64,000 nucleotides of DNA from Bacteroidales bacterium (GCA_050179935.1 JBFXEQ010000005.1:39738-103737); one strand, 5' to 3'. Shown: positions 1,048-50,598, counted from the first letter of the stretch. Program-made: numbers and translations. The notes: generated from the letters alone by a model not told the origin.

Positions 1048-1067
1048 TTCTGATTAATTATAAAAAA

Positions 1068-1110
1068 TCCTACGTGAGTCTTTGTTATTCCCGTAGGGTT
1101 TTCCTTTTTT
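1068..1110 (+). terminator. Possible intrinsic terminator or attenuator hairpin
   Basis: 'CCTACG' (1069-1074) pairs with 'CGTAGG' (1092-1097) and is followed by 'TTTTCCTTTTTT'. The loop is long, so support is weak. Confidence 0.4.
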
Positions 1111-1162
1111 CCAATTATCCAAAAATAATTTATTGATTTTTTGAAAAGCTAACTATCAAACC

Positions 1163-2065: not shown

Positions 2066-2075
2066 CGAATTGAAG

Positions 2076-4397: not shown

Positions 4398-4416
4398 TAA
4401 AATAATAAAAGCAATT

Positions 4417-5490: not shown

Positions 5491-5492
5491 AA

Positions 5493-11594: not shown

Positions 11595-11738
11595 AAGCTT
11601 TGTTTCAAATTACCATCCCTCACATCCACAATGCATAAAAGTAATCAAATCCCATTAAATTAAAATATATTAAAAAGAAATATATTTACTAAACGATGAA
11701 TTTTTACTTATTTTACTAAAAATTAACATCTAATTATT

Positions 11739-12593
11739 ATGAAAACATTTATTATTCAGCTTATTTTAATATTCAGCCTGTTTCAAGGATTATCTCAGAA
11801 TAAAAACGCATATCAGATTTATACTACTAATGGCGAATTGGTTACGTACGAAAAAATGCTAAGTGAATTGAAAAATGCTGATATTATTTTATTTGGAGAA
11901 CTGCATAATAATCCTGTTTCGCACTGGTTACAGTACGAAACAACATTGGATCTATCGCAATCTGAACAACTTATTATGGGAGCCGAAATGTTCGAAGCCG
12001 ATAATCAGGACGAGCTCAATAAGTATTTAAAAGGAGAGATTGATCAAAAAGCATTAGATACCCTTGCCCGGCTTTGGCCAAACTACAAAACAGACTATGC
12101 CCCATTGGTAAATCTGGCCAAAGACAAACAGATAAGTTTTATTGCTACAAATATTCCTCGCCAATATGCCAATATGGTTTTTAAAAAAGGTTTCGAATCA
12201 CTTGAATCGCTCACAGATGAAGAAAAAAGCTGGATGGCACCTTTGCCAATTGAATACGATGCTGAATTACCAGGTTATAAAAACATGCAATCAATGATGG
12301 GTGGACACGGAGGTGAAAACCTACCAAAAGCACAAGCTATAAAAGATGCTACCATGGCCTATTTTATAAGTACCAGTTATTTGCCAGGTAACAAATTTAT
12401 GCATTACCATGGAACTTACCATACCGATAATTACGAGGGAATACTCTGGTATTTGAAAAAGCTGAAACCTGAATTAAAATATATTACCATTTCTACTGTA
12501 GTTCAGCCTGATGTTAATACATTACAGGACGAAAATAAGGGAAAAGCCGATTTTATTATTTGTGTTGATGAAAACATGACATCAACCTACTAA
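11739..12593 (+). CDS. ChaN-family (haem-binding uptake, DUF399-like) lipoprotein or secreted protein
   Basis: Signal peptide and the 'ADIILFGELHNNPVSHW' motif typical of ChaN/Cofac_haem_bdg proteins. Confidence 0.65.
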   Translation: MKTFIIQLILIFSLFQGLSQNKNAYQIYTTNGELVTYEKMLSELKNADIILFGELHNNPVSHWLQYETTLDLSQSEQLIMGAEMFEADNQDELNKYLKGEIDQKALDTLARLWPNYKTDYAPLVNLAKDKQISFIATNIPRQYANMVFKKGFESLESLTDEEKSWMAPLPIEYDAELPGYKNMQSMMGGHGGENLPKAQAIKDATMAYFISTSYLPGNKFMHYHGTYHTDNYEGILWYLKKLKPELKYITISTVVQPDVNTLQDENKGKADFIICVDENMTSTY

Positions 12594-34987: not shown

Positions 34988-35151
34988 TTTTATAATCCAA
35001 AAACCTTTGAGCTGGTGTTTTGAATTAAATTTTGGAAAATACGTTATGCAAATATAAACATATCGCTTTAATATAAAACAAGATTTTTATCATGTTATAG
35101 CAAAAATTTAAATCACTATTTTTGTACATTAATAACAAAAAAGGATAAGCT

Positions 35152-35433
35152 ATGTTTAAAACAAACGAATATTTCGATGGAAAAGTAAAATCAATAGCTT
35201 TCGAAACAAACGAAGGTCCAGCAACAGTTGGTGTTATGGCAAAGGGTGAGTATGTATTTGGAACATCAACAGTAGAATTTATGACTGTAACATCAGGTAA
35301 TATGACCATTCAGCAACCAGGAGAAACAGAATGGAAATCATACAAAGAGTTTGAAACATTTAAAGTTGCTAAAGATGTTAAATTCAAAGTTAAAGTAGAT
35401 AGCGATACTTCTTATCGTTGTCTTTACAAATAG
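35152..35433 (+). CDS. ppnP: Pyrimidine/purine nucleoside phosphorylase PpnP (YaiE, DUF1255)
   Basis: 'NEYFDGKVKSIAFE...ATVGVMAKGEYVFGT...SYRCLY' is collinear with E. coli PpnP. Confidence 0.9.
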   Translation: MFKTNEYFDGKVKSIAFETNEGPATVGVMAKGEYVFGTSTVEFMTVTSGNMTIQQPGETEWKSYKEFETFKVAKDVKFKVKVDSDTSYRCLYK

Positions 35434-35456
35434 TTGAATTTTTTGATCTTTGATAA

Positions 35457-35542
35457 TTGATTTTTTCATTTGCCCCTTCCCTAAAGGGTGTGAAAAAATC
35501 AATTTGCTCCCTTCAGGGTATGAGGCAAACAAATTGATTTTT
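35457..35542. repeat. Twin-hairpin intergenic repeat, copy A (~86 bp)
   Basis: It contains 'CCCTAAAGGG' and 'CCCTTCAGGG' hairpins 30 nt apart inside flanking stems ('GATTTTTTCA'/'TGAAAAAATC'). Its reverse complement aligns almost base-for-base with 53574-53663. It has the same orientation as 58170-58260. Confidence 0.85.
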
Positions 35543-35635: not shown

Positions 35636-35659
35636 CGATATGTTTTTTATATCATATTG
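35636..35659. promoter_or_regulatory. Candidate ModE-type operator, second copy
   Basis: 'CGATATGTTTTTTATATCATATTG'. The left arm and the preceding 'TTACTTTGC' match the site at 399-422, and the right arm is 'CATATTG'. It ends 17 nt upstream of the ATG of the ModE-like gene. Confidence 0.45.
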
Positions 35660-35675
35660 ATTAATAAAAATTCTT

Positions 35676-36053
35676 ATGGCAGGCTCAAAAGGTTCAAAAT
35701 ATTATGATATTTTTTTGAAATTCAAAGTATGGCTTGAAAATACAAAAGGACAGGGTATTTTAGGCGATGGTAAATTTGAATTACTCGAAATGATCGATAA
35801 ACATGGGTCATTAAGTGCTGCAGCTGATAAAATGGGAATAAGTTATCGCAAAGCTTGGGGTAATGTGAAGGAGGCCGAAGAAAAACTAGGATTTATACTG
35901 GTTGAGAAACATCGTGGAGGAGCGCAAGGTGGAAATTCAGTTTTAACACCCGAAGGTAAAAGACTAATTGAAGCTTACAAAGAGCTTTTAGTTGAATTTG
36001 ATGAATCCATTCATCAAATAACTAAAAAATTCTTCAATAAAATTAATTCGTAG
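35676..36053 (+). CDS. ModE N-terminal-domain-like winged-helix regulator (125 aa, no Mop/TOBE molybdate-binding domains)
   Basis: 'GSLSAAADKMGISYRKAWGNVKEAEEKLGFILVEKHRGGAQGGNSVLTPEGKRLIEAY' matches the ModE/LysR-type HTH_1 N-domain pattern. Confidence 0.8.
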   Translation: MAGSKGSKYYDIFLKFKVWLENTKGQGILGDGKFELLEMIDKHGSLSAAADKMGISYRKAWGNVKEAEEKLGFILVEKHRGGAQGGNSVLTPEGKRLIEAYKELLVEFDESIHQITKKFFNKINS

Positions 36054-36056
36054 ATT

Positions 36057-36797
36057 ATGAGATTCTTTGTGGCAATTGATGATACTGACAATTTAGAATC
36101 AAGAGGCACCGGTTTTAGGGCACGCGAAATGGGGAAACTAATTGTTGAACAAGGCGTTGGTGATGTTGAGTCGATTTCGAGACATCAATTGTATGTTCAT
36201 AAAAATATTCCATATACATCGCACAACAGCTCAGCTTGCTTAATTGTGAATACTGATAAATTTGATGCTTTACAAAAGCTATGCTCTGAATATCTTATTC
36301 GTGAAGCTGCCGAAGGTTCTGATGCAGGATTATGTATTGCCAGAGAAGATTTAATTAACGATGAAATTATAGATTGGGGAATCAGAGCTAAAATAGAGAT
36401 TCTTACAAAAGAAAACGCACATAAACTAGCCAATGAAAGAGGTATTTTTCTTGAAGGATATACAGGAACAAAAATTGGTGTTATTGGATCTCTTGCAGCT
36501 GTGGGATTAAGAAAAGCAGGAAACGACGGAAGAAATATCTGGGTAAAAGGAAAAGAATTACGCGAAATATGTGGCATTTTTTCCGGATCAGAATTAAAAA
36601 CGATTAGTCACATACAGGTTATTAAATCTGTTGATGGCAAATTAATAAATGATAATGAACGAATTGATGTTGGAAATTGGTTAAGGCCGGTTATCCAGAA
36701 TAAAGAAATAACTGTAATTGTAGAAAAAACTAAAAAAAATGAAAACCATGAATGGCAGCACGTATCAAAAGAGTATATCAAGAACATTTCAAACTAA
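36057..36797 (+). CDS. Hypothetical cytoplasmic protein with an N-terminus resembling the TiaS kinase-like (TCKD) domain
   Basis: The N-terminal 'MRFFVAIDDTDNLESRGTGF' resembles the TiaS start motif 'GIDDTDS..GMCTT'. I recognised no OB or Zn-ribbon part. It starts 3 nt after the ModE-like gene. Confidence 0.45.
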   Translation: MRFFVAIDDTDNLESRGTGFRAREMGKLIVEQGVGDVESISRHQLYVHKNIPYTSHNSSACLIVNTDKFDALQKLCSEYLIREAAEGSDAGLCIAREDLINDEIIDWGIRAKIEILTKENAHKLANERGIFLEGYTGTKIGVIGSLAAVGLRKAGNDGRNIWVKGKELREICGIFSGSELKTISHIQVIKSVDGKLINDNERIDVGNWLRPVIQNKEITVIVEKTKKNENHEWQHVSKEYIKNISN

Positions 36798-37317
36798 TAC
36801 ACTTACATTAGTTCTTGAGATATTATTATTGTTAGCATTAGGAATCGGTGCAATTGTATTGCGTTCAAACCTCCGTATTCCATTAAACATACCCGGCCGT
36901 CATGGATTGGAGTTTATGGCAATTATTATGATTGGACGCAGGATTTCTAAGTTGCCATTTGCAACCATAATTATGATGCTGGGAGCATCAAGCTTTATGT
37001 TTTTCCCATTTATAGGAATCAAAGATCCATTTTTGCCAATAATTTATGTTGTTATGGGAGTTGTAGTTGATACTTTGTATTTATTATTCCGAAATCCCGC
37101 TAAAAGACTGGCAATTCTTACTCTAATTGGAGGTTTAGCCTATATGGTAATACCAATTAGTCGTTTAACCATTTATCTTTTTACAGGCGTTCTTGAATCT
37201 TCATTTATTAAGTGGGGATTTGTTGTCCCTGTTTTATCTCACTTTGTATTCGGAATTGCCGGTGCATTATTAGGAGCCGGATTCGTTTATTCAATCAATA
37301 GAATTATAAAAAAATAA
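36739..37317 (+). CDS. Small polytopic inner-membrane protein (about 5-6 TM), unknown family
   Basis: Hydrophobic segments occur throughout. It overlaps the upstream gene by 50-59 nt (ATG at 36739 or 36748), which suggests translational coupling. Confidence 0.6.
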   Translation: MKTMNGSTYQKSISRTFQTNTLTLVLEILLLLALGIGAIVLRSNLRIPLNIPGRHGLEFMAIIMIGRRISKLPFATIIMMLGASSFMFFPFIGIKDPFLPIIYVVMGVVVDTLYLLFRNPAKRLAILTLIGGLAYMVIPISRLTIYLFTGVLESSFIKWGFVVPVLSHFVFGIAGALLGAGFVYSINRIIKK

Positions 37318-37330
37318 AAAATCGCTTTTT

Positions 37331-38275
37331 ATGAAGATTATTAAACCTATGGTTGGCGATATGAAAAAAAGAACCTGTCGGTACTTTTATAACTCACTAT
37401 TTGTATTGTTACTTATACTTCTTACAATTAATTATTCATGTAACGAAGAAGACAAAAACGATTTTTCGGATCCGGAAATAAATATCATAAATCTACCTGG
37501 GCATGTTTTCTCTGACTCGACAATTTCTGCAGGACAAAAATTTATTGTAGGTGTAGAAGCTACATCAAACGGGCATAATAAACTAACCAATTTTATTGCA
37601 AAAGTAAACGGTGAAAGATATTTGGATCTGGGAATTTTTTCAGAAACCTTTAATAAAGAAATTGAAATTACCAAAGGACTTAGCGAAACGGATGTTTGGG
37701 AATTTATAATTCGAGATATTGAAGGAAATTGGGCAAGCAAGAGCATAACAATTACTCAAGGTGATTCAACTGGATTTGGCGAAATTGATACGTACTTAAA
37801 TGTTTATTTGGGAGCTCAAAATAGCACTCTTTACGGAAGTTTCTTTTCTTTAGGTACTGGTACTGTTTATAATTTGCAAGATGCATTTACAAATTCAGCC
37901 CTTATTGATTTAGTATATTATTATGATGATTTTGATAAGCTAGAGAAATGTATCATGGCATCGCCAGGAGCAAATATTGGTGAAACAGCCTTTCCGGGTG
38001 AATTTGCCATAGCTAATTGGGAAACAATTAATACAACCCGATACAGCAAAGAAAAGCTCTCCCTTTCAATTGAAGAATTTGACAATGCTTTAAATGATAG
38101 CATTTTAATAGCAAACACATTTGCTTTCGAAACCGGTGGGCGTAAAGCAAAACTCCTACAAACTGGCGATATGTTTGCATTTGTAAGAGATAACAAAACA
38201 GGAATATTTAAAGTGGTGAATACATTGGAATCAAATAGCGGTTATATTGTTGTTGATATAAAAATTCAAAAATAA
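37331..38275 (+). CDS. Lipoprotein, uncharacterised family (paralog 3 of 3)
   Basis: Lipobox 'TINYSC'. The true start may be the ATG at 37361, 'MKKRTC..'. It shares the mid-block 'ASPGANI' and the C-terminal 'RKAKLLQTGDMFAFVRDNKTGIFKVVNTLESNSGYIVVDIKIQK' with ORFs 454-1047 and 1163-2065. Confidence 0.7.
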   Translation: MKIIKPMVGDMKKRTCRYFYNSLFVLLLILLTINYSCNEEDKNDFSDPEINIINLPGHVFSDSTISAGQKFIVGVEATSNGHNKLTNFIAKVNGERYLDLGIFSETFNKEIEITKGLSETDVWEFIIRDIEGNWASKSITITQGDSTGFGEIDTYLNVYLGAQNSTLYGSFFSLGTGTVYNLQDAFTNSALIDLVYYYDDFDKLEKCIMASPGANIGETAFPGEFAIANWETINTTRYSKEKLSLSIEEFDNALNDSILIANTFAFETGGRKAKLLQTGDMFAFVRDNKTGIFKVVNTLESNSGYIVVDIKIQK

Positions 38276-38280
38276 GTTGC

Positions 38281-40569
38281 ATGATGATTTCAAAAAAAAT
38301 AATTCAAATAGTACTCGTTCTTTTTCTATTCCCCATTTCGGTTTTTGCTCAAATCGAATTATCGGGAAAAATTATTGACTCAGTTACGAATGAATCATTA
38401 TCAGGGGCCAATATTGTTTTGCTAGAAATACAGCACGGTGTTTCCAGTAATAAAAATGGTGAGTTTACGGTTCTAAATATTAACCCCGGAACTTACACTA
38501 TACTTGTTTCATTTGTAGGTTATTACAATCAAGAACTAACACTTTTGGTTGATGAAAACAATAATCATGTTATAATTAAATTGAATCCATCTGTTATTGA
38601 AATGGAAAAGGTAATAATTACAGCAACTTTAACAGAACGAAAGATTGAAGATTTACCTGGTCAGAATGAAATTATCGAAAAGAACACGATAGAAGGTTAT
38701 CCTGTTTCCAATACTGATGATCTTCTTCAATCCATTTCAAATATTAATGTTAACCGCAGCTGGGGGATTTTTTCCAAAAATTCATCAGTAACTATGCGTG
38801 GTTTGGAATCGGCTCAAGGAACGTTGATTCTTTATAATGGTGTTCCCCTGAACAAAACTGCTGGAGGTTCAATTAACTGGCATATGATTTCTCCTGACCG
38901 GATTGAACGAATTGAAATAATAAAGGGTCCAAGCTCTGCTCTATATGGAAATAATGCTATGGGCGGAGTTATTAATATCATCACAAAAAAAACAAACGAA
39001 GAGATTTCGGGAGATATAAGAGCATTTGGTGGTACTTATGGCACTTATGGCGGAAAACTGAATCTTGAAGGAAATCAAAAGCTATTTGGGAAAAAATTTT
39101 ATTGGGGTGTTAATGGATTTTATCGACAAGGTGATGGGTATATTATAGAGCCGTTAAATCTTCGAGATTCAACAGATGTTAAGGTTTACCTTAAAGAAAA
39201 CCGCTTAGGAGCGATGGTTGGCTATGAGTTTAATCAAAACAATAAACTTGAAGTTGAATATAGCTATTATGACGATAAACGAGGCGACGGAAAACAGGTT
39301 TATTTCGACGATGGTGGTTATGTTAAGTACACAACAAATTTTGTGCGCGCAAAATACAACACACAGATTGCTTCTTTTAAGATTGAAGCAAACGCATATT
39401 TTCAGAACGAAGATTTTTACCAGTTTACCGAATCTATAAATGATGATGGCAATTATAAGCTCTCGTACAAAGATCAAATTTCAAGAGATTACGGGATTTG
39501 GACAAATGCTACAAAAAATTTTGGCGAACACAACTGGCTTACATTTGGAGTTGATTTTAAACAGGGATTTATGGATGCATCAGATGTTTACCTAACATCA
39601 ACAGATACTGTTTTGCGCGATGGCAAAATTCAATCGTATGCTGCTTTTATTCAAGATGAACATCGATTTTTTAATGAAAAACTAAAGATTATTGCCGGAT
39701 TGCGATTTGATTATTCACGTTTCTATAATGCTTCGATTTATGTTGGCGATCCATCAGTAAATACAGGATTTGAAGAATCCTTTTCAGAAAATTATAAAAA
39801 CTCCGATTGGACTGCATTAAGTCCAAAGCTTGCTATTCAATATGACATTTCAAAATCAATTAAGTCTTATATTTCAGCATCATCAGGCTTTATGCCGGCT
39901 ATTATAGACGATATGATTTCGTCTCGAAAAATAAATAAAGGGTTTAAGCAAGCTAACCCTGAATTGCAGCCTCAAACTTTATACAATTACGAAATAGGGT
40001 TTAACACAAAACCATTTAAAAAGGCACAATTAAAAACAGCCGCCTATTATTCGAAAGGTAAAGATTTTCAATATTTTGTCGGTACCGGCAATTATATTGA
40101 CGGACAGCCTGAACTGATGCGAGAAAACATTGCTGAAGTTGAAATTATTGGTGCAGAAATATCATTCCAATACGATTTTACGAATCAATTAATTTTTAAA
40201 ACAAATTACACTTATAATAGCTCAATTATTAAAGATTTTGATTTAACCAATTATACAGGCGATGATTTATCAGGCAAACAGCTTATAGATATTCCCTGGC
40301 ATCAGGCTTTTGCAGGGTTCTTTTGGAAAAACAGGTTCATCAATACAACTCTTACAGCTAATTATATTGGTAAAGAATATTCAGACGAACAAAATATTCT
40401 TATTATTGATGATTATGTAACAATTGATCTAAACCTATCAAAGACTATTTATCGTAATTACTCCTTATCACTGGATATTCAGAATCTATTCGACAAGGTG
40501 TATATTGATAAAAAAGACAGACTATCACCTGGAAGATTTATTGTTTTTGAATTTGGGTATAAGTTTTGA
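38281..40569 (+). CDS. TonB-dependent outer-membrane receptor with a CarboxypepD_reg-like N-domain (paralog of 2076-4397)
   Basis: 'GKIIDSVTNESLSGANI..NINPGTYTILVSFVGY', 'RIEIIKGPSSALYGNNAMGGVINIITKK', 'LKIIAGLRFDY' and a C-terminal 'FEFGYKF'. It is collinear with the first TBDR. Confidence 0.9.
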   Translation: MMISKKIIQIVLVLFLFPISVFAQIELSGKIIDSVTNESLSGANIVLLEIQHGVSSNKNGEFTVLNINPGTYTILVSFVGYYNQELTLLVDENNNHVIIKLNPSVIEMEKVIITATLTERKIEDLPGQNEIIEKNTIEGYPVSNTDDLLQSISNINVNRSWGIFSKNSSVTMRGLESAQGTLILYNGVPLNKTAGGSINWHMISPDRIERIEIIKGPSSALYGNNAMGGVINIITKKTNEEISGDIRAFGGTYGTYGGKLNLEGNQKLFGKKFYWGVNGFYRQGDGYIIEPLNLRDSTDVKVYLKENRLGAMVGYEFNQNNKLEVEYSYYDDKRGDGKQVYFDDGGYVKYTTNFVRAKYNTQIASFKIEANAYFQNEDFYQFTESINDDGNYKLSYKDQISRDYGIWTNATKNFGEHNWLTFGVDFKQGFMDASDVYLTSTDTVLRDGKIQSYAAFIQDEHRFFNEKLKIIAGLRFDYSRFYNASIYVGDPSVNTGFEESFSENYKNSDWTALSPKLAIQYDISKSIKSYISASSGFMPAIIDDMISSRKINKGFKQANPELQPQTLYNYEIGFNTKPFKKAQLKTAAYYSKGKDFQYFVGTGNYIDGQPELMRENIAEVEIIGAEISFQYDFTNQLIFKTNYTYNSSIIKDFDLTNYTGDDLSGKQLIDIPWHQAFAGFFWKNRFINTTLTANYIGKEYSDEQNILIIDDYVTIDLNLSKTIYRNYSLSLDIQNLFDKVYIDKKDRLSPGRFIVFEFGYKF

Positions 40570-40632
40570 TTGTTCTTTTACAAAAAAATGGTGCAATTTT
40601 GCAATATAATTGGTTGGATTATAACTTAACAA

Positions 40633-41430
40633 ATGAATCACTCTGATACTTTTTCTTTATATTCACGATGGTTTTCAGCATATATAAACCATTTCCTGGT
40701 ATTACATCCCGATTTGGCAGAAAATATCCAGATTAAAGCCGATCACAGCAGAAAAGTACACCACGAAATCCTTGGATTAGCAAAAAACATAAAACTTACC
40801 GAAGGAGATACATTTATAGCCGAGACCATTGGACTTTTTCATGATATCGGCCGGTTTAAACAATATGTAAAATACCAGACTTTTTCCGATTCAAAATCGC
40901 AAAACCATGCTGAGTTAGGCGTTGATGTTCTTAAAGAAAATAATGTTTTAAAAAATCTTACCCCAGAACAGCAAGAAATTATTTATAAATCAATTCTTAA
41001 TCATAGCAGAGCCGAGATTGCTCCTGATACTAATGAAAAAGTGATTTCCTTTTCAAAAATGATTCGCGATGCAGACAAACTCGATATCTGGCGACTAATT
41101 ACCGAATACTATATGGTAAAAGAGCAAAATGAAAACAAAACACTTGAGCTCGAATTGCCGGATAACGAAGAAATTTCGGACGAAGTTCTGCAGGCAATTT
41201 TAAACCACCAATTAATATTAAAAGAATCGTTGAAAACCCTCAATGATTTTAAACTGTTGCAGATAGCTTGGATTTTTGATCTGAATTTCGATTATTCAAT
41301 CCAACGGCTTTTTGAAAAAAAATATCTCGAAAAAATAATTAGAACTTTGCCACAGAACAACAAGGTAAATAAGGTTAAAACCTTGGTAGATTCTTATTTT
41401 AGGGAGCATATTAAAACATTTGCCCAATAA
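40633..41430 (+). CDS. HD-domain phosphohydrolase-like protein
   Basis: 'H...GLFHDIGR' HD motif and a downstream 'DADKLD'. Confidence 0.75.
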   Translation: MNHSDTFSLYSRWFSAYINHFLVLHPDLAENIQIKADHSRKVHHEILGLAKNIKLTEGDTFIAETIGLFHDIGRFKQYVKYQTFSDSKSQNHAELGVDVLKENNVLKNLTPEQQEIIYKSILNHSRAEIAPDTNEKVISFSKMIRDADKLDIWRLITEYYMVKEQNENKTLELELPDNEEISDEVLQAILNHQLILKESLKTLNDFKLLQIAWIFDLNFDYSIQRLFEKKYLEKIIRTLPQNNKVNKVKTLVDSYFREHIKTFAQ

Positions 41431-41478
41431 TAACTGATATAAAACCAAAGAATAACTATTTTTGTAAAAATTTTGTAG

Positions 41479-42651
41479 ATGATAACCATAGAAAAAGCAT
41501 ATCAAACAGTTATAGGAAAATCATACACACTGGAAACAGAGAAGATTGATTTTATTGATTCTGTAGGGAGAATACTTGCTGAAGATGTAACTTCGGATAT
41601 TGAAATGCCTCCATTTGATAAATCATCGATGGATGGATATGCTTGCCGGCGAGCAGATGTTGATAATACACTCGAAATTATAGAAATTATTCCAGCAGGA
41701 AAAACACCAACCAAAAGAATTGGTCCAAATCAGTGTGCAAAAATAATGACCGGAGCGCCCGTTCCAGAAGGAGCCGATTTTATTGCAATGGTCGAATACG
41801 CCGAAGAGATTGATGATAAATATGTAAAAATCAACAAAATAACTCAGCGCAATAATATAAGCTATCGTGCCGAAGATGTTAAGATTGACCAATTGGTATT
41901 GCAGAAAGGTATAAAAATTAAACCTCAGCATATTGCCGTTTTTGCTTCGGTTGGATATACCAATGTTTTGGTAACAAAACAACCTAGAGTTGCAATTATT
42001 TCTACTGGCGATGAGTTGGTTGAGCCGCATAAAAAACCGGGTATTTCGCAGATCAGAAACAGTAATGGTTATCAACTAATTACACAAGTAAAATCGTGTG
42101 GAGCTATTGCAAATTATATTGGAATTGCAGATGATACTCCTGAAGATACTTTCAATAAAGTAAGTAAAGCATTATCTGAGAATGATTTGGTGCTTTTAAC
42201 CGGTGGTGTCTCTATGGGTTCGTTCGATTTTGTTCCCGAAGTATTGAAAAAAGCAGGAATAGAAATTTTGTTCGATTCTATAGCAGTAACACCTGGGAAA
42301 CCAACAACATTTGGTGTTACTGGTAAAAAATTCTGTTTTGGATTACCCGGAAACCCAGTTTCATCATTCATACAATTTGAATTATTAGTAAAACCATTAA
42401 TTTATAAGTTGATGGGATTTGATTTTCAACCATTGGATATACAAATGCCTATGGGTATTGAATTTAAACGCAAAAAGACAGATCGTAAAGCATATATCCC
42501 CGTGTTTATTAAAGATGGAGAAGTTTTTCCTGTTGAATATCATGGATCAGCGCATATACATGCTTTATCGTTTGCACACGTAATAATTGCTTTTCCAATC
42601 GGAGTTGATACGTTATTAAAAGGAGAAATCGTTCATGTACGACAAATATAA
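41479..42651 (+). CDS. moeA: Molybdopterin molybdenumtransferase MoeA
   Basis: 'PPFDKSSMDGYA', 'IMTGAPVPEGAD', 'TGDEL' and 'LTGGVSMGSFDF' motifs. Confidence 0.92.
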   Translation: MITIEKAYQTVIGKSYTLETEKIDFIDSVGRILAEDVTSDIEMPPFDKSSMDGYACRRADVDNTLEIIEIIPAGKTPTKRIGPNQCAKIMTGAPVPEGADFIAMVEYAEEIDDKYVKINKITQRNNISYRAEDVKIDQLVLQKGIKIKPQHIAVFASVGYTNVLVTKQPRVAIISTGDELVEPHKKPGISQIRNSNGYQLITQVKSCGAIANYIGIADDTPEDTFNKVSKALSENDLVLLTGGVSMGSFDFVPEVLKKAGIEILFDSIAVTPGKPTTFGVTGKKFCFGLPGNPVSSFIQFELLVKPLIYKLMGFDFQPLDIQMPMGIEFKRKKTDRKAYIPVFIKDGEVFPVEYHGSAHIHALSFAHVIIAFPIGVDTLLKGEIVHVRQI

Positions 42652-43435
42652 TCGCAAAATAAATTATCTGAGAATTTCAGTAACAGATCGCTGTAACTTG
42701 CGATGTGTATATTGCATGCCCGAAGGTGGTGTTACATTACTCAAACACGAAGAAATTCTGAATTTTGAAGAAATCGTACAAGTTACCAAAACTGCTGTTC
42801 GCAAAGGAGTTAATAAAATACGAATTACAGGTGGTGAGCCATTAGTACGAAAAGGGATTATTGAACTGATCAGCATGATTGGAAAAATTGATGGAATAGA
42901 TGACTATTCAATGACTACAAATGGTATTTTATTGGAACAGTTTGCCGAGGAACTTAAAAAAGCAGGATTGCACAGAGTAAATATAAGTCTCGACTCAATG
43001 GATCCTGAACGATACAGACAAATAACCCGGGGTGGTGATATTACTAAGGTTTTTGCAGGAATTGAAGCGGCAAAAAAAGTAGGGCTGGAACCTATAAAAA
43101 TAAATTGTGTAATAAAAAAGAGCGAAGAGGAGCCTGATGCTGTTGAGGTTGCTAAATTTTGCAAAGAAAATGGACTGTTTGTTCGTTTTATTACGGAAAT
43201 GGATCTTGAAAAAGGAGAGTTCTCAATAGTGCATGGTGGGTCAGGTGGCGATTGTGTACATTGTAATCGCATTCGTTTAACAGCCAATGGAATGATAAAA
43301 CCATGTTTGTTTAGTGATATTCAATATAGCGTAAGAGAACTTGGTGCTGATAAAGCAATAGATATGGCTATTGCGAATAAGCCAAAAAATGGACATACTA
43401 ATGTTACCGGGAAGTTTTATAATATAGGTGGATAG
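42635..43435 (+). CDS. moaA: GTP 3',8-cyclase MoaA (compact form, radical SAM)
   Basis: 'LRISVTDRCNLRCVYCMPE' (CxxxCxxC), 'ITGGEPL', a second cluster 'CVHCNRIRLTANGMIKPCLF' and a C-terminal Gly-Gly. It overlaps moeA by 17 nt. Confidence 0.9.
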   Translation: MYDKYNRKINYLRISVTDRCNLRCVYCMPEGGVTLLKHEEILNFEEIVQVTKTAVRKGVNKIRITGGEPLVRKGIIELISMIGKIDGIDDYSMTTNGILLEQFAEELKKAGLHRVNISLDSMDPERYRQITRGGDITKVFAGIEAAKKVGLEPIKINCVIKKSEEEPDAVEVAKFCKENGLFVRFITEMDLEKGEFSIVHGGSGGDCVHCNRIRLTANGMIKPCLFSDIQYSVRELGADKAIDMAIANKPKNGHTNVTGKFYNIGG

Positions 43436-43440
43436 AAGAA

Positions 43441-43525
43441 GCTGTGAGCTATGAGCTATGAGCCGTGAGTTTTTAGCTGTTAGTCCTTTAATTTTAAATT
43501 TTCAAGTTTCAAATTTCAAATTTCG
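43441..43525. repeat. Two short heptamer tandem arrays in the moaA-moaC spacer
   Basis: 'CTGTGAG CTATGAG CTATGAG CCGTGAG' (43441-43469) and 'TTTCAAG TTTCAAA TTTCAAA TTTCG' (43500-43525). Confidence 0.8.
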
Positions 43526-43530
43526 TTCTT

Positions 43531-43992
43531 ATGAGCAAATTAAGTCATGTTGATGATAAAGGAAAGGCCAATATGGTTGATGTTGGTAAGAAACCCGATC
43601 AGAGCCGGGTGGCAATAGCCACTGGACACATTACTTTGGCTAAGGAAACTGTTAAACTTATAAAAGAGAACTCCATGAAAAAAGGTGATGTGCTTACCAT
43701 TGCCGAAATTGCAGGAATACAGGGTGGTAAGCGAACCAGCGAATTAATTCCATTGTGTCATCCATTGCAAATTACTAAAATGGATGTGAAAGCCAAGATT
43801 GATAAAACAGGTGTTAGAGTTAATTCTGAAGCACGATGTGTTGGAAAAACCGGTATCGAAATGGAAGCTTTGACTGCTGTTTCTGTTGCTTTGCTTACCG
43901 TTTACGACATGTGCAAAGCAGTTGATAAATCAATGCGTATAGATGAAATTACACTTGTCGAAAAAACAAAAACAGATATAATAGAACGCTGA
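43531..43992 (+). CDS. moaC: Cyclic pyranopterin monophosphate synthase MoaC
   Basis: 'LSHVDDKGKANMVDV', 'KGDVL..A.IAGI..GKRTSELIPLCHPL' and 'GIEMEALTAVSVALLTVYDMCKA'. Confidence 0.93.
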   Translation: MSKLSHVDDKGKANMVDVGKKPDQSRVAIATGHITLAKETVKLIKENSMKKGDVLTIAEIAGIQGGKRTSELIPLCHPLQITKMDVKAKIDKTGVRVNSEARCVGKTGIEMEALTAVSVALLTVYDMCKAVDKSMRIDEITLVEKTKTDIIER

Positions 43993-44295: not shown

Positions 44296-45216
44296 TTAGA
44301 GAATACTTAGAATTGCTTTCCCTTTACGCACTCCTTCCACCAAGCAATGCAAATATTCGGGCATGGGTTTGTTAAAGATCTCAGGTTTAAATGAACTTAC
44401 CTTAGTTTCAATACCAAATACATCAATCACAATAATTATTTTTGAGTTCTTATCCAACAAATCAGGATCGTTCTCGATTCGTAAAAACTTAAATGGGTAG
44501 GTTTTTCCAATTTTATAATGAGGATGGTTCGGTTCAATTTTTAGCTGTCCATCGGTGTCGAATTTGGTTACAGTACATTCAACCTGTCGGCCAATACAAA
44601 GGTTATAATGTTTGTACATATCCATTTTTAATGAATATGAATTACCAAAACCATCATGCAAAATGTAATACTTAACACCGTTTAAATCTTTTAATTCATA
44701 TACAGTGAACGCATATTTTTCGCCAATCTGCAAAAGCTTTCTTGTGTTTTCTGTTTCAGAATGAATTAAAAATAACTGTCCTTTTTTAATCCGCACAACT
44801 TTACATTTTATTCTTTCTCCAATATCTTCCGGATTTAAATTTTCAGGCATAGAACAACTGTTTTCATGTCCAAACCTATCCTTTACAATAATGATACTTT
44901 CCTTTTCGCCCACTGAGTTTGTGTGTGTTGAGAAACGAATCACATCAAAATCGTAAATCTCACCCGGCTTGTAAAAAGGATTTTCGGGTTCGAGAAATAT
45001 CTTACCACTGCAATTTATTTTATCAATTCTACAAGTAATATCAATTCCAACCGTTAGATTATAATGCTTAAAAGGAAAAGCTTTTAGCAAGTGCTTGCCT
45101 CCCCATTGGTTTTTGAGGATAAAGAAAGAATCATTTGTATCTGGAATCTCAGTATAATCAATAATTTTAAATTGATAAAAATCACCTTCGGTAAATTTAT
45201 ATTGGTTTTGATTCAA
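44296..45216 (-). CDS. Hypothetical protein built from four tandem OB/S1-like repeats (A-B-A-B pattern)
   Basis: Internal repeats start at 'GDFYQFKII', 'GEIYDFDVIRF', 'GEKYAFTVYEL' and 'GKTYPFKFLRI'. Repeats 1 and 3 share 'KHYNL.(V/I)G..(I/V).C...K' and '(L/I)EPN(P/H)P.Y'. Confidence 0.65.
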   Translation of the reverse strand: MNQNQYKFTEGDFYQFKIIDYTEIPDTNDSFFILKNQWGGKHLLKAFPFKHYNLTVGIDITCRIDKINCSGKIFLEPENPFYKPGEIYDFDVIRFSTHTNSVGEKESIIIVKDRFGHENSCSMPENLNPEDIGERIKCKVVRIKKGQLFLIHSETENTRKLLQIGEKYAFTVYELKDLNGVKYYILHDGFGNSYSLKMDMYKHYNLCIGRQVECTVTKFDTDGQLKIEPNHPHYKIGKTYPFKFLRIENDPDLLDKNSKIIIVIDVFGIETKVSSFKPEIFNKPMPEYLHCLVEGVRKGKAILSIL

Positions 45217-45271: not shown

Positions 45272-47575
45272 ATGAGACAATTTTACCTTAAAAAAACTAA
45301 TTATGCAATTACGGTAATTTTATTACTTCTAACATGTAAGCCATTAACAACTTTTTCTCAAAAGATACAGACAATAGTACATAGTTCTTCCACAGTATCT
45401 ACTTTTGTAGTAAAAAATGACACAATATGGATGGGAACAACTTCAGGAATAGTTATTATGGGTAAAAACAAAGAAATAATATCTACCTATCCCACCATAA
45501 ATGGCATTAACAACATAAACTTTTTTTCATCAGCTATTGATAATTCAGGCGATTTATGGTTTGGTTCAGACAAAGGTATTTTTGTATTTAGTGAAGGTAA
45601 CTGGAATAATTATTATCAAGATAGATGGGTTTTGGATATCGAAGTAGATATTGAAGGAAACATTTGGTTTGGAACCAATGGTGGCATTTTAAAATATAAA
45701 AATGGGTGGTCTTCAATTACAGAAGGTCTTTCTGAGCAAATAGTTTGGGCAATATTTAATGATTCAAATAATAATCTATGGGCCGGAACAACTTTGGGTT
45801 TAGATAAATTTAATGGGGTTAGTTGGGAAAATTTTAATACATCTGATGGTTTAACTGATAATAACATTCTGGATATTAATGAAGATAAATCCGGGAATTT
45901 ATGGGTTGGAACATCTAATGGTGGGGTATCAAAATACGATGGAACCAATTGGCAAAGTTATTTGGAATCTGAACAAATATTTTCAGTTGAAATAATAAAT
46001 GACACTGTTTGGTTTGGATCACATAATGGAGCATTTAAATTTTCAGAGATTGATACTATAAATTTTAAAACATCTGAAGGGCTCCTGGACAATTATGTAA
46101 AATCTATATTTATTGATGAAAATAGTTCTGTTTGGTTTAATAATTTAATAGGTATAACTGAATACGACTATATAAGCTTAGAAACCTATTCAATTACAAA
46201 TAACTTAGCCAATAACTTCGTTAGAAGTATTGCTATAGACACACTAAATAATACTAAATGGATTGGAACTGACAATGGAATCTCTGTTTTTGATGGCATT
46301 AACTGGACAACTTTTAATACATCGGATGGATTAACGGCAAATTTCATTAAGAATATAAAAATTGATTCAGACAATAATAAATGGATTGCAACAAATAATG
46401 GAGTTTCATTTTATGATGGAAATACATGGACTAATTATAATGCTGAACTGATTACAAATGATACCAGAAGCATTTCTATTGATACTTCAGGCAATGTTTG
46501 GATCGGCACATACTTAGGATTAAATAAATTCAATGGTTCAACATGGTCTTCTTATACTGTAAATGAGGGAATTATTGATAATAATATTATTACTACCTAT
46601 ATCGATAAAAATGACGATTTGTGGCTTGGAACTATAAGCGGGGTTTCGTTACTTAAAGATGAAAATTGGACAAATTATACAACTAGTGATGGATTAGTAA
46701 GCAATTATGTGAGTGCAATTATACAGGATACTTTAGGAAACTATTGGTTTGGAACAGATAATGGATTTTCAAAATTTGATGGAACAGATTGGACCTCCTA
46801 TGGAAACGATTTAGAAACAATTTTTTGTTTAGAAATTGACAAACTTAACAATTTATGGATTGGAACACTAGATGGTGTTTATGTTTTAGAAAAGGATTCA
46901 CTTAAACATTATAATGAATTTGATAATCTTGCTGGCAATAATATTTTTGCAATAGAGGTAGATAAGGAAGGTTTTAAATGGATTGGATGTAATAAGGGGC
47001 TCACATTCTTTAACTATTATCCAGAAAGTTCCGATACAACTTTAACATATGAATCAGGTTCAAAAAATTTGTCAGAAAGTTCTATTCTAAAAATAAAGGC
47101 AAAGGATGCTGATGGCAATAATTTAAAATTCTCGATTGAGGATAACTCAAATACACAAAATATTTTTAAAATTAATCAATTGACAGGTGATATAACCACC
47201 AATAACGTTGATACCCTAACAAAAACATATGTTTTAGACATAAAAATAACTGATGGTAAAGCATCAACTAATTCAAAAGTAACTTTAACGTTCATTAACT
47301 CATCTAATAATATCGAAAACAATAATAAGATAAGCGAGTATAGGATCTTTCCAAATCCTGCAATAAATTATATCATTATTGATAAAAGCAATAATGATGA
47401 AGCTGTGGCTATCCAATTGATTGATATGACTGGCAAAACAATCCTTAGAAAAGCTATAAAGGATGGGGAGTCAGGACAAATAAAACTTGATTTGCCTGAT
47501 TTAAAAATTGGTACATATATCTTAAACCTAAAGCATGCTGACAAATCAGTTACTCATAAGCTTATAATTAACTAG
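45272..47575 (+). CDS. Secreted two-component-regulator-propeller (Reg_prop) repeat protein with a cadherin-like module and a T9SS C-terminal sorting domain
   Basis: Many 'W.GT..G...(F/Y)(D/N)G..W..(F/Y)' repeats. The C-terminus 'YRIFPNPAINYIIID...GTYILNLKH....HKLIIN' is Por_Secre_tail-like. Confidence 0.85.
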   Translation: MRQFYLKKTNYAITVILLLLTCKPLTTFSQKIQTIVHSSSTVSTFVVKNDTIWMGTTSGIVIMGKNKEIISTYPTINGINNINFFSSAIDNSGDLWFGSDKGIFVFSEGNWNNYYQDRWVLDIEVDIEGNIWFGTNGGILKYKNGWSSITEGLSEQIVWAIFNDSNNNLWAGTTLGLDKFNGVSWENFNTSDGLTDNNILDINEDKSGNLWVGTSNGGVSKYDGTNWQSYLESEQIFSVEIINDTVWFGSHNGAFKFSEIDTINFKTSEGLLDNYVKSIFIDENSSVWFNNLIGITEYDYISLETYSITNNLANNFVRSIAIDTLNNTKWIGTDNGISVFDGINWTTFNTSDGLTANFIKNIKIDSDNNKWIATNNGVSFYDGNTWTNYNAELITNDTRSISIDTSGNVWIGTYLGLNKFNGSTWSSYTVNEGIIDNNIITTYIDKNDDLWLGTISGVSLLKDENWTNYTTSDGLVSNYVSAIIQDTLGNYWFGTDNGFSKFDGTDWTSYGNDLETIFCLEIDKLNNLWIGTLDGVYVLEKDSLKHYNEFDNLAGNNIFAIEVDKEGFKWIGCNKGLTFFNYYPESSDTTLTYESGSKNLSESSILKIKAKDADGNNLKFSIEDNSNTQNIFKINQLTGDITTNNVDTLTKTYVLDIKITDGKASTNSKVTLTFINSSNNIENNNKISEYRIFPNPAINYIIIDKSNNDEAVAIQLIDMTGKTILRKAIKDGESGQIKLDLPDLKIGTYILNLKHADKSVTHKLIIN

Positions 47576-47696: not shown

Positions 47697-48143
47697 ATGA
47701 ATTCTATAAAAGTAGTTTCAGTAAATATATCCGAAAAAAAAGGAACCATAAAAAAACCTGTTGATGGTATTAATTTAACAGAATTAGGTGTTGAACGTGA
47801 TGCACATGCCGGTGAATGGCATAGGCAGGTTAGTTTGCTGGCAAAAGAAAGTATTGAGAAATTTGAAAAAGTACTAGGTAGAAAACTTGAATATGGCGAA
47901 TTTGCTGAAAATATTACCACCGAGGGAATTACCTTACATACAAAAAAACCAGGAGATAAGATTATTATAGGAGAAGTTGAGCTTGAGATAACCCAAATAG
48001 GTAAGGAATGTCATGGTACAGGTTGTGCTATTTTTAGTCAGGTGGGCCAGTGCGTAATGCCAAAGGAAGGAATATTTGCAAAAGTGATAAAAACAGGCAA
48101 AATTAAAGCCAACGATACCATTGTATATATTGAAAACAAATAA
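47697..48143 (+). CDS. MOSC-domain protein (stand-alone)
   Basis: 'ERDAHAG.WHRQVSLL', 'GEFAENITTEG' and the Cys-rich block 'IGKECHGTGCAIFSQVGQCVMPKEGIF'. Confidence 0.85.
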   Translation: MNSIKVVSVNISEKKGTIKKPVDGINLTELGVERDAHAGEWHRQVSLLAKESIEKFEKVLGRKLEYGEFAENITTEGITLHTKKPGDKIIIGEVELEITQIGKECHGTGCAIFSQVGQCVMPKEGIFAKVIKTGKIKANDTIVYIENK

Positions 48144-48151
48144 CTACAAAC

Positions 48152-49069
48152 ATGATAAAAGGCAAGGTATTATCAGTTAGTTTTTCGTCAGAACGCGGAC
48201 CTAAAAAGCCGGTAAATGAATTAAATCTGAACGAAAAAGGTATTGTCGGTGATGTGCATGCAGGAACAGGAAGACAAGTAAGTATTATCGATATTTATCA
48301 TATTAATCGTTTTAAAGAAATTACCAGCTCACGAGATACTGAGTTTGGCGAGTTTGCCGAAAATATTACAGCCGAAGGTTTGCAGGAGATCGATTTTCGG
48401 GTTTTCGATCAATTAAAAATAGGAACTTCAGTTTTAGAAGTTACACAAGTTGGAAAACCTTTTCATGATCAGTTTCGCGAACTTGGAAATTATGTAATGC
48501 CACGGGTTGGTATATTTTGTAGAGTAAAAGTTAAAGGTATTATTAAACCCGGAGATGAAATCGCATATATTCCCAAGCTATTTAAGGTTCTTGTAATAAC
48601 ATTAAGTGACAGAGCCAGCGCTGGAGAATATGAAGATAAAAGCGGTCCAAGAATAATTGAACTATTGAACTCCTATTTAAAGAAGATTAATGTTAACCAT
48701 CAGATTAATAGTGATATAATTCCTGACAACAAAGAAAAACTTACCGAATTAATTTTAAAAGCAAAAAAAGAATCAATCGATATAATAATTACCACCGGTG
48801 GAACAGGAATTGGTCCGAGAGATATAACTGTCGAAACAATTAAACCAATGCTCGACAAAGAGATACCGGGTATTATGGAAATGATTCGTATGAAATACGG
48901 TCTGGAGAAACCAAATGCCTTATTAAGCCTTGGCGTTGCCGGAGTTATGGGACAAAGTCTAGTTTATACCTTACCCGGAAGTGTTAAAGCGGTTGATGAA
49001 TACATGACCGAAATTTTAAAAACATTACAGCATCTTATTTATATGCTACATGGAATAGATGTTCATTAA
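48152..49069 (+). CDS. Fusion of a MOSC-like domain and the MogA/MoaB molybdopterin adenylyltransferase domain
   Basis: The N-terminal half is paralogous to the preceding ORF ('GEFAENITAEG') but lacks its Cys block. The C-terminal half has 'ITLSDRASAGEYEDKSGP' and 'TTGGTGIGPRDITVE'. Confidence 0.85.
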   Translation: MIKGKVLSVSFSSERGPKKPVNELNLNEKGIVGDVHAGTGRQVSIIDIYHINRFKEITSSRDTEFGEFAENITAEGLQEIDFRVFDQLKIGTSVLEVTQVGKPFHDQFRELGNYVMPRVGIFCRVKVKGIIKPGDEIAYIPKLFKVLVITLSDRASAGEYEDKSGPRIIELLNSYLKKINVNHQINSDIIPDNKEKLTELILKAKKESIDIIITTGGTGIGPRDITVETIKPMLDKEIPGIMEMIRMKYGLEKPNALLSLGVAGVMGQSLVYTLPGSVKAVDEYMTEILKTLQHLIYMLHGIDVH

Positions 49070-49080
49070 TAATTACTTTT

Positions 49081-49635
49081 ATGAATAGAGATCAAGCCGA
49101 AGAACTTTTAAAATCATATATCAAGAACGAAAAAATGCTATATCACAGCTATTCTTCAGAGGCAGTATTGCGTGCATTAGCAAAACGATTGGGCCGCGAT
49201 GAGGAAAAATGGGGATTAGCAGGCTTACTTCACGATATTGACAGCGAAATAACCAATGGCGATTCTAAGAGACATGCCTTAGAAGCTGTTGAGATTCTTC
49301 GTAAGCATGGTATTGATGAAGAAATAATTGATGCCATAAAAATGCATAACGAACATGCCACAGGTATGGAACGCACAACAGAATTTCAACATGCATTAGC
49401 GGCCGGTGAAACAATTACCGGATTAATTTATGCTACAGCCCTTGTTTATCCAGATAAGAAAATTAAAGATGTTCAAACCAAATCGGTTACAAAGCGAATG
49501 AATCAATCGGCTTTTGCTGCATCAGTAAATCGAACTACCATAATGGAGTGCGAAAAAATTGGACTGCCATTAAATGAATTTGCAGAAATTTCTATTAACG
49601 CGATGAAACAAATTGCAGAAAAAATTGGATTATAG
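49081..49635 (+). CDS. HD-domain protein (small, stand-alone)
   Basis: 'H......AGLLHDID' HD motif and a further 'H..H' block. Confidence 0.75.
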   Translation: MNRDQAEELLKSYIKNEKMLYHSYSSEAVLRALAKRLGRDEEKWGLAGLLHDIDSEITNGDSKRHALEAVEILRKHGIDEEIIDAIKMHNEHATGMERTTEFQHALAAGETITGLIYATALVYPDKKIKDVQTKSVTKRMNQSAFAASVNRTTIMECEKIGLPLNEFAEISINAMKQIAEKIGL

Positions 49636-49974
49636 TCGCCTCCTCTCAACTTTCCTTATCTTAATCGCCTATAATACAATCTTTTAGATTATATTTTTTA
49701 AACTATTCAAATCAGACAAATTGTTAATCAACACATTAGAACAGAAAACATGTTTTAAAGCATCTGTTTTTAATGAGACTCATTCTAAAGTATGGCTAAA
49801 AAATCTGGTAATATAAAATCTATCAGTAGCTTACAAGGCTGTTCATAACCAATTTTGGAGAAATGGTTGTAGATTTCAATTTTTTAATAAATTTGACCGT
49901 CATTAACTTAGAGGGAATGTTCCCATATTAAATAGTTTTACTACTAGTTCTTTTATTAATTAAACTCAACTATT

Positions 49975-50598
49975 ATGATACCATCAAAAGAAGAAATTAA
50001 AATTTCGGCAGCGATACTCGCAGGTGGTGCGAATAAGCGGTTTAATGGAAAAACAAAAGCAAACATCCAGATTAGTGGTGTTCGAATAATAACCCGCGCC
50101 ATTAAAACTCTCTATGATATTTTTAATGATATCGTAATTGTAACCAATACACCAGAAGAGTTCAAAACCTGCCAGCAGTTTACGATCGTTCCTGATAAAA
50201 TTAAAAATGTTGGTCCTCTTGGAGGTATTCATGCAGCACTTAATGCTGCTAAACACGAGGCTGTATTTGTATTTGCCAGCGATATGCCTTGTCTCTCAGG
50301 AGATCTTATTAAAGAGCACATTGAGTTTTATTTAAAACACAGATGTGATGCGGCTATACCTGCAATTAAAAAAACGATTGAGCCACTGCATGCAATTTAC
50401 AACAAACGCATTGAAGACCAGCTGTTTGATTTTTTAGGTACTGCAGATAAATACTCAGTTGAAACTTTTTTAAGCCAGATAAATACCAAATATCATAAAT
50501 TGGCTGATACAGACCAAAATAGAAAAGCATTTATAAATATTAATACACCCGAGGAACTTTCGAACATAGAACTTTTAACCGAAAGTGGTTACAGATAG
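49975..50598 (+). CDS. mobA: Molybdenum cofactor guanylyltransferase MobA
   Basis: 'AAILAGGANKRF', 'GPLGGIHAAL', 'ASDMP' and 'FININTPEE'. Confidence 0.88.
   Translation: MIPSKEEIKISAAILAGGANKRFNGKTKANIQISGVRIITRAIKTLYDIFNDIVIVTNTPEEFKTCQQFTIVPDKIKNVGPLGGIHAALNAAKHEAVFVFASDMPCLSGDLIKEHIEFYLKHRCDAAIPAIKKTIEPLHAIYNKRIEDQLFDFLGTADKYSVETFLSQINTKYHKLADTDQNRKAFININTPEELSNIELLTESGYR

Follow-up and report, generated by a model that had tools for sequence, protein, structure and literature searches.

Why would an outer-membrane receptor be encoded in the middle of an operon for molybdenum cofactor (Moco) biosynthesis? [quoted passage not shown] An earlier note on this DNA had proposed that the receptor module is tied by association to molybdenum or tungsten (Mo/W). 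We read the locus, with a probability of about 0.6, as half of a supercluster through which anaerobic Bacteroidota would acquire molybdate or tungstate under the control of ModE and with a TonB-dependent outer-membrane step, a judgement built on sequence comparison and structural models.

The nine same-strand genes that had been described were all found as open reading frames (ORFs) on the + strand at 35676-43992, and the gaps between them are those reported (3 nt, an overlap, 13, 5, 63 and 48 nt, a 17-nt overlap and 95 nt). They encode the ModE-like regulator, a cytoplasmic protein resembling the TiaS kinase domain (TCKD), a polytopic membrane protein, lipoprotein 2, TBDR2, an HD-domain protein, MoeA, MoaA and MoaC. 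The nine-gene region is real, but position 35636, given as its start, is the first base of a ModE box and not of a gene.

The module has a relative near the start of the window. TBDR2 (762 aa, 38281-40569, + strand; Pfam CarbopepD_reg_2, Plug at 8e-25 and TonB_dep_Rec_b-barrel at 2e-39) and TBDR1 (2070-4397, + strand; CarbopepD_reg_2, Plug and barrel) are 41% identical over their full length (E = 0), and the shared sequence blocks quoted previously are present in their alignment. Lipoprotein 2 (37361-38275, + strand) is in turn a paralogue of lipoprotein 1 (1163-2065, + strand; 27% identity, E 1e-24). A third, short paralogue (454-1047, + strand) comprises the C-terminal domain only and is 33% identical to the C-terminal half of lipoprotein 2 (E 1e-24). 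The paralogy noticed earlier therefore holds for receptors and lipoproteins alike.

This first module belongs to operon 1 (454-7320), which together with the gene ahead of it reads wtpA - lipoprotein - lipoprotein - TBDR1 - 357-aa lipoprotein - wtpB - wtpC. The wtpA-like gene for the substrate-binding protein is cut by the window edge, and its 3' end (39-371, + strand) has WtpA as best NCBIfam match (1.5e-22), aligning with the C-terminal portion of that model. The permease of the ATP-binding cassette (ABC) system (5493-6287, + strand) best matches WtpB, with 278 bits against a cut-off of 340, and the ATPase (6256-7320, + strand; Pfam ABC_tran and TOBE) best matches WtpC, with 345 bits against 440. 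In related loci, full-length substrate-binding proteins pass the curated WtpA cut-off of 355 bits (377, 361 and 363 bits). Judged by these matches, the outer-membrane module sits inside a predicted tungstate/molybdate ABC operon.

Both modules also carry the same operator. Aligning the regions upstream of the ModE-like gene in orthologous loci yielded a 24-nt palindrome, CGATATG-N10-CATATCG, that resembles a ModE box. With at most one mismatch allowed, the window contains three copies, each with a single mismatch, where shuffles give an expectation of 0.01. The first (CGATATGTTATTTGTAACATAACG, 399-422) lies in the operon 1 promoter, between wtpA and the first lipoprotein gene and directly behind 'ttacttttg'; the second (CGTTATGCAAATATAAACATATCG, 35042-35065) is upstream of a Ppnp gene, a position kept in many loci; the third (CGATATGTTTTTTATATCATATTG, 35636-35659) is directly behind the promoter box 'tttactttg' of the gene for the ModE-like regulator (ModE-N), and this position is kept in orthologous loci. 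A degenerate box at 37357-37380, with two mismatches, overlaps the codon at which lipoprotein 2 probably starts, and more than 20 orthologous loci have an operator with 0-1 mismatch at that same place.

In at least 15 loci the operator upstream of ModE-N follows the TTTG of the promoter box by 0-4 nt. In our reading, this TTTG belongs to the -7 promoter element of Bacteroidetes, TAnnTTTG. A sigma-70 promoter scan gave background level only, as expected for Bacteroidota. Another candidate operator, GATAT-N7-ATATC, was rejected, as it occurs once in the window and lacks conservation in orthologous loci. The Bacteroidales palindrome shares its 24-nt CG..CG span with the Escherichia coli ModE consensus, ATCGNTATATA-N6-TATATANCGAT (PMC545781), and closely matches a Methanosarcina acetivorans site for ModE, RTTATGT-N8-RCATAAY, validated by electrophoretic mobility shift assay (PMC12327845). 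Since the same operator is found at both TBDR operons, the two modules would be members of a single regulon whose operator is of the ModE type. On sequence evidence, we are confident of this regulon membership and of the gene linkage of the TBDR modules.

The operator recurs far beyond the window. Related loci, metagenomic ones included, were collected by exact-protein look-ups and by a metagenome scan with the TCKD-like protein, and are labelled here with L-numbers. All fetched loci together hold 70 operator sites with at most one mismatch in 1.03 Mb, against about 0.2 by extrapolation from the window shuffles. They recur upstream of both ModE-N and Ppnp and exactly on the lipoprotein ATG, and additionally upstream of TCKD-like genes where a ModE-N gene is absent and upstream of lipoprotein genes of the operon 1 type. 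Many of them coincide with the lipoprotein start, and loci that have operators but no ModE-N gene nearby (L015, L020, L025, L072 and L078) are among those concerned.

The candidate protein to read these sites is the 125-aa ModE-like regulator itself (35676-36053, + strand; Pfam HTH_1, 1e-9), whose best NCBIfam match is ModE_repress (3e-23; 81.7 bits, below the cut-off of 98.5). [quoted passage not shown] We infer that it binds the operators and that binding represses. The Ppnp/DUF1255 cupin gene (93 aa, 35152-35433, + strand; Pfam Ppnp, 1.4e-32) has a ModE box of its own and precedes ModE-N in 19 of 34 loci, the distant lineages of L022, L046, L064, L066 and L085 among them. Because the regulator has no metal-sensing domain, one might speculate that this cupin is its partner. 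Two nested inverted repeats, perfect or nearly so, lie at 35455-35542, behind the Ppnp stop codon and ahead of the ModE-N promoter. They consist of AATTGATTTTTTCA/TGAAAAAATCAATT and a pair of 22 nt and probably represent a terminator or else some repeated element.

Gene order was then considered across loci. In the close lineage (12 genomes, with lipoprotein identities of 46-85%) the whole arrangement is kept, down to an unrelated putA-like gene, and synteny within this lineage therefore tells little by itself. A genome scan with a narrow lipoprotein alignment, A2, reached this close lineage only. Distant homologues of the lipoprotein (34-38% identity) retain four genes, for the TCKD-like protein, the membrane protein, the lipoprotein and the TBDR, and their sequenced flanks contain no Moco genes. 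It is thus this four-gene core that constitutes the real unit; the lipoprotein and TBDR pair had been put forward as the conserved module, and it is conserved, but as part of a larger whole that takes in the TCKD-like and membrane proteins.

Once TCKD-like loci were de-replicated at 85% identity (73 clusters), the membrane protein gene was found to follow the TCKD-like gene in 57 of 58 eligible non-redundant loci. The lipoprotein gene comes next in 46 of 51 and a same-strand TBDR gene after it in 34 of 38, and a ModE-N gene stands ahead of the core in 30 of 61. For non-redundant loci of at least 8 kb, a ModE-N, Wtp or Moco gene is present in 22 of 41 and a ModE box in 25 of 41, and 32 of 41 have at least one of these. 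The association with Mo/W genes proposed from the window thus extends to other genomes. The tie that had been drawn at two places in the window is borne out by the shared operator, by the wtpA...wtpBC frame of operon 1 and by this enrichment. Linkage to moeA, moaA and moaC, which had also been emphasised, is seen in some lineages but not in the flanks of the distant homologues.

These data bear on the simplest alternative, namely that a generic nutrient TBDR module was inserted by chance beside Moco and wtp genes in one lineage. Full Moco linkage is indeed limited to one family-level lineage that is extensively syntenic even with respect to the putA-like gene, and several distant loci have no Mo/W gene nearby. 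However, in many lineages, some of them without neighbouring Mo/W genes, the lipoprotein and TBDR genes themselves carry ModE boxes, the window alone has three operators where 0.01 would be expected, and separate associations with wtpABC, tupABC, moeA and a molybdoenzyme operon are found in different phyla-level backgrounds. Chance adjacency is largely refuted by these observations and hardly credible as an explanation.

The loci also show how the two halves of the proposed acquisition supercluster relate to each other. The wtpABC genes lie downstream of the core in L082, L083 and L086, and wtpA lies ahead of it in L022 and L064; the proteins that pass the curated WtpA cut-off come from such core-linked wtp contexts (L022, L064, L082 and L086). 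Both modules are neighbours in L012, L016 and L025, and the metagenomic locus L064 has, on one strand, modE-wtpA-TCKD-membrane-lipoprotein-TBDR-lipoprotein-TBDR-357aa-wtpB. The two Mo/W contexts of the window had been regarded as independent. Two contexts do exist, but the modules are adjacent or form one array in L064, L022, L025, L016 and L012, and the contexts are therefore better seen as pieces of a single ancestral supercluster. An independent core-MoeA-MoaA-MoaC-MoaB arrangement is present in L103, and Moco genes follow the core in L088 as well.

Further from Bacteroidota, the TCKD-like and membrane protein genes travel as a pair. In four high-GC loci (L061, L074, L077 and L081) the pair stands behind an operon for a molybdopterin oxidoreductase exported by the twin-arginine translocation pathway, composed of Fer4, a TorD-like chaperone, the catalytic subunit, a Fer4 subunit and cytochrome b, and it faces a convergent TBDR gene. 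In L094 a TBDR gene is directly behind the pair. In L092 the pair lies between an ArsR/PBP_like regulator and genes for a TupA-like substrate-binding protein, a permease, an ATPase, MoeA and MoeA-PBP_like. Orthology of the proteobacterial receptors to TBDR2 was considered and rejected, as those of L074 and L094 have generic plug similarity only. The high-GC loci look like an independent recruitment of a TBDR in a proteobacterium-like background. By these comparisons the TCKD-like and membrane proteins would be an ancient Mo/W-linked element to which receptors were recruited more than once.

What, then, does this pair do? The TCKD-like protein (246 aa, 36057-36797, + strand) has a weak Pfam match to TiaS_TCKD. 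A profile of its family, searched against PDB sequences, finds the TCKD domain of TiaS over residues 1-151 (3e-7), and also 3u02. The family numbers 328 representatives at E<=1e-30 (clusters at 50% identity), almost all of about 245 aa, and has an invariant DDTDN..RGTG motif; the DDTD and the residue aligned to Thr18 of TiaS are invariant. Its domain fusions were uninformative. It thus resembles the archaeal tRNA-Ile2 agmatidine synthetase TiaS in its N-terminal 150 or so residues, in the DDTD and in the Thr18 position. It differs in being bacterial and in standing alone at 246 aa against 420 aa, in missing the tRNA-binding FLD, OB and Zn-ribbon domains, and in always being paired with a membrane protein. 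We therefore do not regard it as a tRNA enzyme.

The partner is a membrane protein of 189 aa (36748-37317, + strand; the ORF opens at 36739, giving 192 aa, but 36748 is the most likely start), whose gene overlaps that of the TCKD-like protein by about 50 nt in the loci checked (the window and L015). It has no Pfam match. Its structural model (mean predicted local distance difference test score, pLDDT, 88) has about six helices, and the only coherent fold matches in the PDB are S-components of energy-coupling factor (ECF) transporters, namely 5edl, RibU, PanT, ThiT and FolT, with template modelling (TM) scores of 0.46-0.55 and E of 0.05-4. This points weakly to an S-component-like fold. Size, helix number and best fold matches are shared with ECF S-components (RibU, ThiT, FolT, PanT and YkoE), in contrast to the sequence, which has no similarity to them, and to the genetic setting. 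Neither in the window nor in the examined loci is the pair accompanied by an EcfT-like or EcfA gene or by a further ABC ATPase gene, and translational coupling to the TCKD-like protein is found instead. The protein has an invariant, basic, R/H-rich loop, RIPLNIPGRHG, together with conserved R67, R142 and K158; we know of no counterpart of this loop in S-components. The earlier note had suggested the small inner-membrane protein as the inner-membrane step, which its S-like fold makes plausible, but had left it unconnected to the TCKD-like gene with which it always occurs. As a counterpart or paralogue of 454-1047 it was rejected; 454-1047 encodes the lipoprotein paralogue described above.

The pair supplies arguments for the main rival reading, in which the system salvages a Moco-related organic molecule (Moco, molybdopterin, cyclic pyranopterin monophosphate (cPMP) or a pterin breakdown product) and not a metal. 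TBDRs and lipoproteins would import the molecule, the S-like protein would carry it over the inner membrane, in the way that ECF S-components handle vitamins, and the TCKD-like kinase would trap or re-activate it by phosphorylation. The fold matches of the membrane protein are vitamin S-components, the folate (and hence pterin) binder FolT among them; its obligatory partner resembles a kinase domain and invariably has the DDTD and the residue that corresponds to Thr18 in TiaS; two HD phosphohydrolases are encoded in the cluster; and large organic ligands are normal TBDR cargo. Set against this, the commonest partners of the core are the oxyanion-specific WtpA/WtpBC or TupABC and not pterin enzymes, de novo cPMP synthesis (moaA and moaC) is encoded in the same operon, and Moco is very labile outside proteins.

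Salvage could also draw on the 357-aa lipoprotein of operon 1 (4417-5490, + strand), which always follows the TBDR1-type receptor and is conserved there in L016, L022, L025 and L064. Its faint match to the Moco-binding domain Oxidored_molyb is, however, below any threshold (E 0.011), and Pfam and PDB sequence searches found nothing above noise for it. The protein lacks an acidic run after the lipobox Cys (CNVKQTD) and contains two internally similar motifs, GAYRYDGY.LYDILN and PFTGV.LKDV. On balance, we consider salvage unlikely, although it is the rival to be taken most seriously, and prefer acquisition of the metals themselves.

The ORF of lipoprotein 2 opens at 37331 (314 aa), and M11 (37361) is the most likely start, for homologues begin there and the ATG lies inside the operator; an invariant lipobox Cys37 is followed by NEEDK. 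All three paralogues combine a lipobox Cys with an acidic run (CNEEDK, CTEDEN and CEDEEE), which we take to be the Bacteroidota surface-export signal, and the lipoproteins encoded at 454, 1163 and 37361 are presumably surface-exposed. The model of lipoprotein 2 (pLDDT 90.7) comprises an Ig-like N-domain and a C-domain. Its best fold match is an uncharacterised DUF4466 protein of Parabacteroides, 4ei0 (Foldseek E 1e-9, TM 0.38, root-mean-square deviation 18.9 A, 13% identity). Lipoproteins 1 and 2 have no Pfam match, SusD is absent from both the Pfam and the fold results, and a lipoprotein profile searched against PDB sequences gave nothing useful. TBDR2 recovers only generic plug domains among PDB sequences, and neither receptor reaches the cut-off of any substrate-specific NCBIfam TBDR model (haem, siderophore, B12 or copper).

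A second rival is that the receptors import some other oxyanion or metal (vanadate, selenate, sulfate, or iron/haem) and share a regulator with Mo/W genes for convenience only. The best NCBIfam match of both receptors is the haem/haemoglobin receptor subfamily, TonB-hemin, but with 190.6 bits for TBDR2 and 234.7 bits for TBDR1 it is far under the cut-off of 316.85. The lipoprotein of one relative has a faint HmuY match (22.8 bits over 50 residues, where the cut-off is 27); a HmuY identity of lipoprotein 2 was nevertheless rejected, as it has no Pfam match and HmuY is not in the top 50 matches of its fold search. Wtp- and Mod-type systems are related to sulfate transporters, which would also suit another cargo. 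No locus, however, has haem, iron or sulfur genes beside the core, and WtpA, Tup, MoeA, ModE-N and molybdoenzyme genes recur there. We judge a cargo of this sort improbable, more so than salvage, and molybdate/tungstate acquisition remains the preferred reading.

Compared with known systems, the locus would represent TBDR and surface-lipoprotein nutrient uptake placed under a metal-responsive repressor. As in BtuB-BtuG and HmuR-HmuY, the lipoprotein gene is immediately upstream of the TBDR gene, an acidic stretch follows the lipobox Cys as in surface-exported Bacteroidota lipoproteins, and the module is part of a nutrient-use operon regulated by the sensor of that nutrient. In contrast to those systems, lipoprotein 2 has an Ig-like domain and one that may be DUF4466-like and is, by fold search, neither a BtuG-like propeller nor HmuY-like, control would be by a ModE box in place of Fur or a B12 riboswitch, the ligand is implied to be related to Mo/W, and one regulon includes two to three paralogous lipoproteins and two TBDRs. 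With WtpABC, ModABC and TupABC the locus shares the ModE-type palindrome over the promoter (PMC545781, PMC12327845) and, in operon 1 and related loci, the Wtp genes. Those transporters cover the step from periplasm to cytoplasm only, whereas in this case wtpA is separated from wtpBC by outer-membrane receptors, surface lipoproteins and an additional membrane/cytoplasmic pair, and the regulator is without Mop sensor domains.

Outer-membrane passage of molybdate and tungstate is usually ascribed to porins, and Mod, Wtp and Tup begin in the periplasm. In the literature covered, which included few subscription journals, we found no description of a molybdate/tungstate TBDR, a ModE-regulated TBDR or a molybdophore receptor, and nothing on the TCKD-like family in a Mo/W context or on DUF4466. 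[quoted passage not shown] An extracellular binder with an outer-membrane partner is common to both; going by the same part of that report, a secreted substrate-binding protein and type VI secretion take the place of lipoprotein and TBDR, and there is no homology (PMC11734730).

The mechanism that we propose, in which the substrate and every transport step are as we infer them, would run as follows. The acidic-tailed lipoproteins (454, 1163 and 37361) would capture scarce Mo/W species at the cell surface, be it the free oxyanion, a thio-form or a chelate, and their cognate TBDRs (2070 and 38281) would pump these into the periplasm. WtpA-WtpBC of operon 1 would carry Mo/W over the inner membrane, and the S-component-like and TCKD-like pair (36057-37317), the latter probably using ATP, may act at the same inner-membrane step, as a parallel route or in processing. 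MoeA and the co-encoded Moco enzymes would use the imported metal. The sensor-less ModE-like repressor, on 24-nt operators over promoters and the lipoprotein start, would tie the whole set to Mo/W status. The involvement of a TBDR suggests a cargo larger or scarcer than the free oxyanion, for example thiometalates or chelated Mo/W, and the habitats of these MAGs appear, from gene content and sample names, to be anoxic.

Several points weigh against this reading. Porins could let free molybdate and tungstate through, given their small size, and we found no TBDR described for either. The lipoproteins resemble no known oxyanion binder by PDB sequence or fold search, and the S-component match of the membrane protein is weak, S-components being mostly vitamin carriers. 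The ModE-like protein has no Mop domains with which to sense Mo/W. The box at the lipoprotein start has two mismatches in the window itself, in nine of the 41 longer loci nothing in the sequenced flank points to Mo/W, and the receptors of proteobacterial loci, by sequence, are not orthologous to those of the window.

The TCKD-like and S-like pair may represent a new kind of transporter. A broader proposal is that it forms an unrecognised cross-phylum inner-membrane route for Mo/W or a Moco-related pterin, with the kinase-like partner energising transport or making it irreversible, and that in Bacteroidota it is fed by TBDRs and a new class of surface lipoproteins. We offer this tentatively and incline to doubt it. 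If it held, Mod, Wtp and Tup would be joined by a fourth type of Mo/W uptake system, the first of them to include a specific step at the outer membrane. If the acquisition reading is correct, scavenging of Mo/W at the cell surface is an active process in anaerobic Bacteroidota, which would fit sulfidic sediments and digesters, where Mo/W is scarce or locked in thio-complexes or chelates. The loci also give a testable functional context to three unannotated families (the lipoproteins, the 190-aa membrane protein and the TCKD-like protein of about 245 aa) and define a candidate Bacteroidota ModE operator that could be used for mapping the whole regulon.

Several other features of the window deserve mention. 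Genes for VTC-domain and DUF4956 proteins (polyphosphate-related) and for a ChaN/Cofac_haem_bdg protein lie between the two Mo/W operons (10181-11594 and 11739-12593); no ModE box was found around them (10181-12593), so they are apparently unrelated to Mo/W acquisition. No Rfam family, the Moco riboswitch included, reached its gathering score anywhere in the window. Within the nine-gene operon, moeA (41479-42651, + strand) matches Pfam MoeA_N, MoCF_biosynth and MoeA_C; moaA (42635-43435, + strand) encodes a short form of 266 aa that passes TIGR02666 with 291.9 bits (cut-off 284); and moaC (43531-43992, + strand) matches Pfam MoaC at 5e-54. Additional Moco genes recognised by Pfam (MOSC, MOSC-MoaB/Mog, HD and MobA) are found at 47697-50598 on the + strand and are syntenic in close relatives.

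The HD-domain phosphohydrolase between TBDR2 and moeA (40633-41430, + strand; Pfam HD, 4e-10) is syntenic in the close lineage (L002-L012). A second, different HD phosphohydrolase gene is located at 49081-49635, and both are kept within the Moco cluster of that lineage; to our knowledge, canonical Moco biosynthesis involves no HD protein. The Moco cluster of the window is split by a gene (45272-47575) for a cargo protein of the type IX secretion system, with Reg_prop repeats, a cadherin-like domain and a Por_Secre_tail, for which tblastn found no match at this place in relatives whose sequence extends that far. Between moaC and the MOSC genes, a gene on the - strand (44296-45216) encodes a 306-aa protein that has no Pfam or NCBIfam match and is conserved in all close relatives. 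By eye, this protein contains similar repeated segments, GEIYDFDV, GEKYAFTV and GKTYPFKF.

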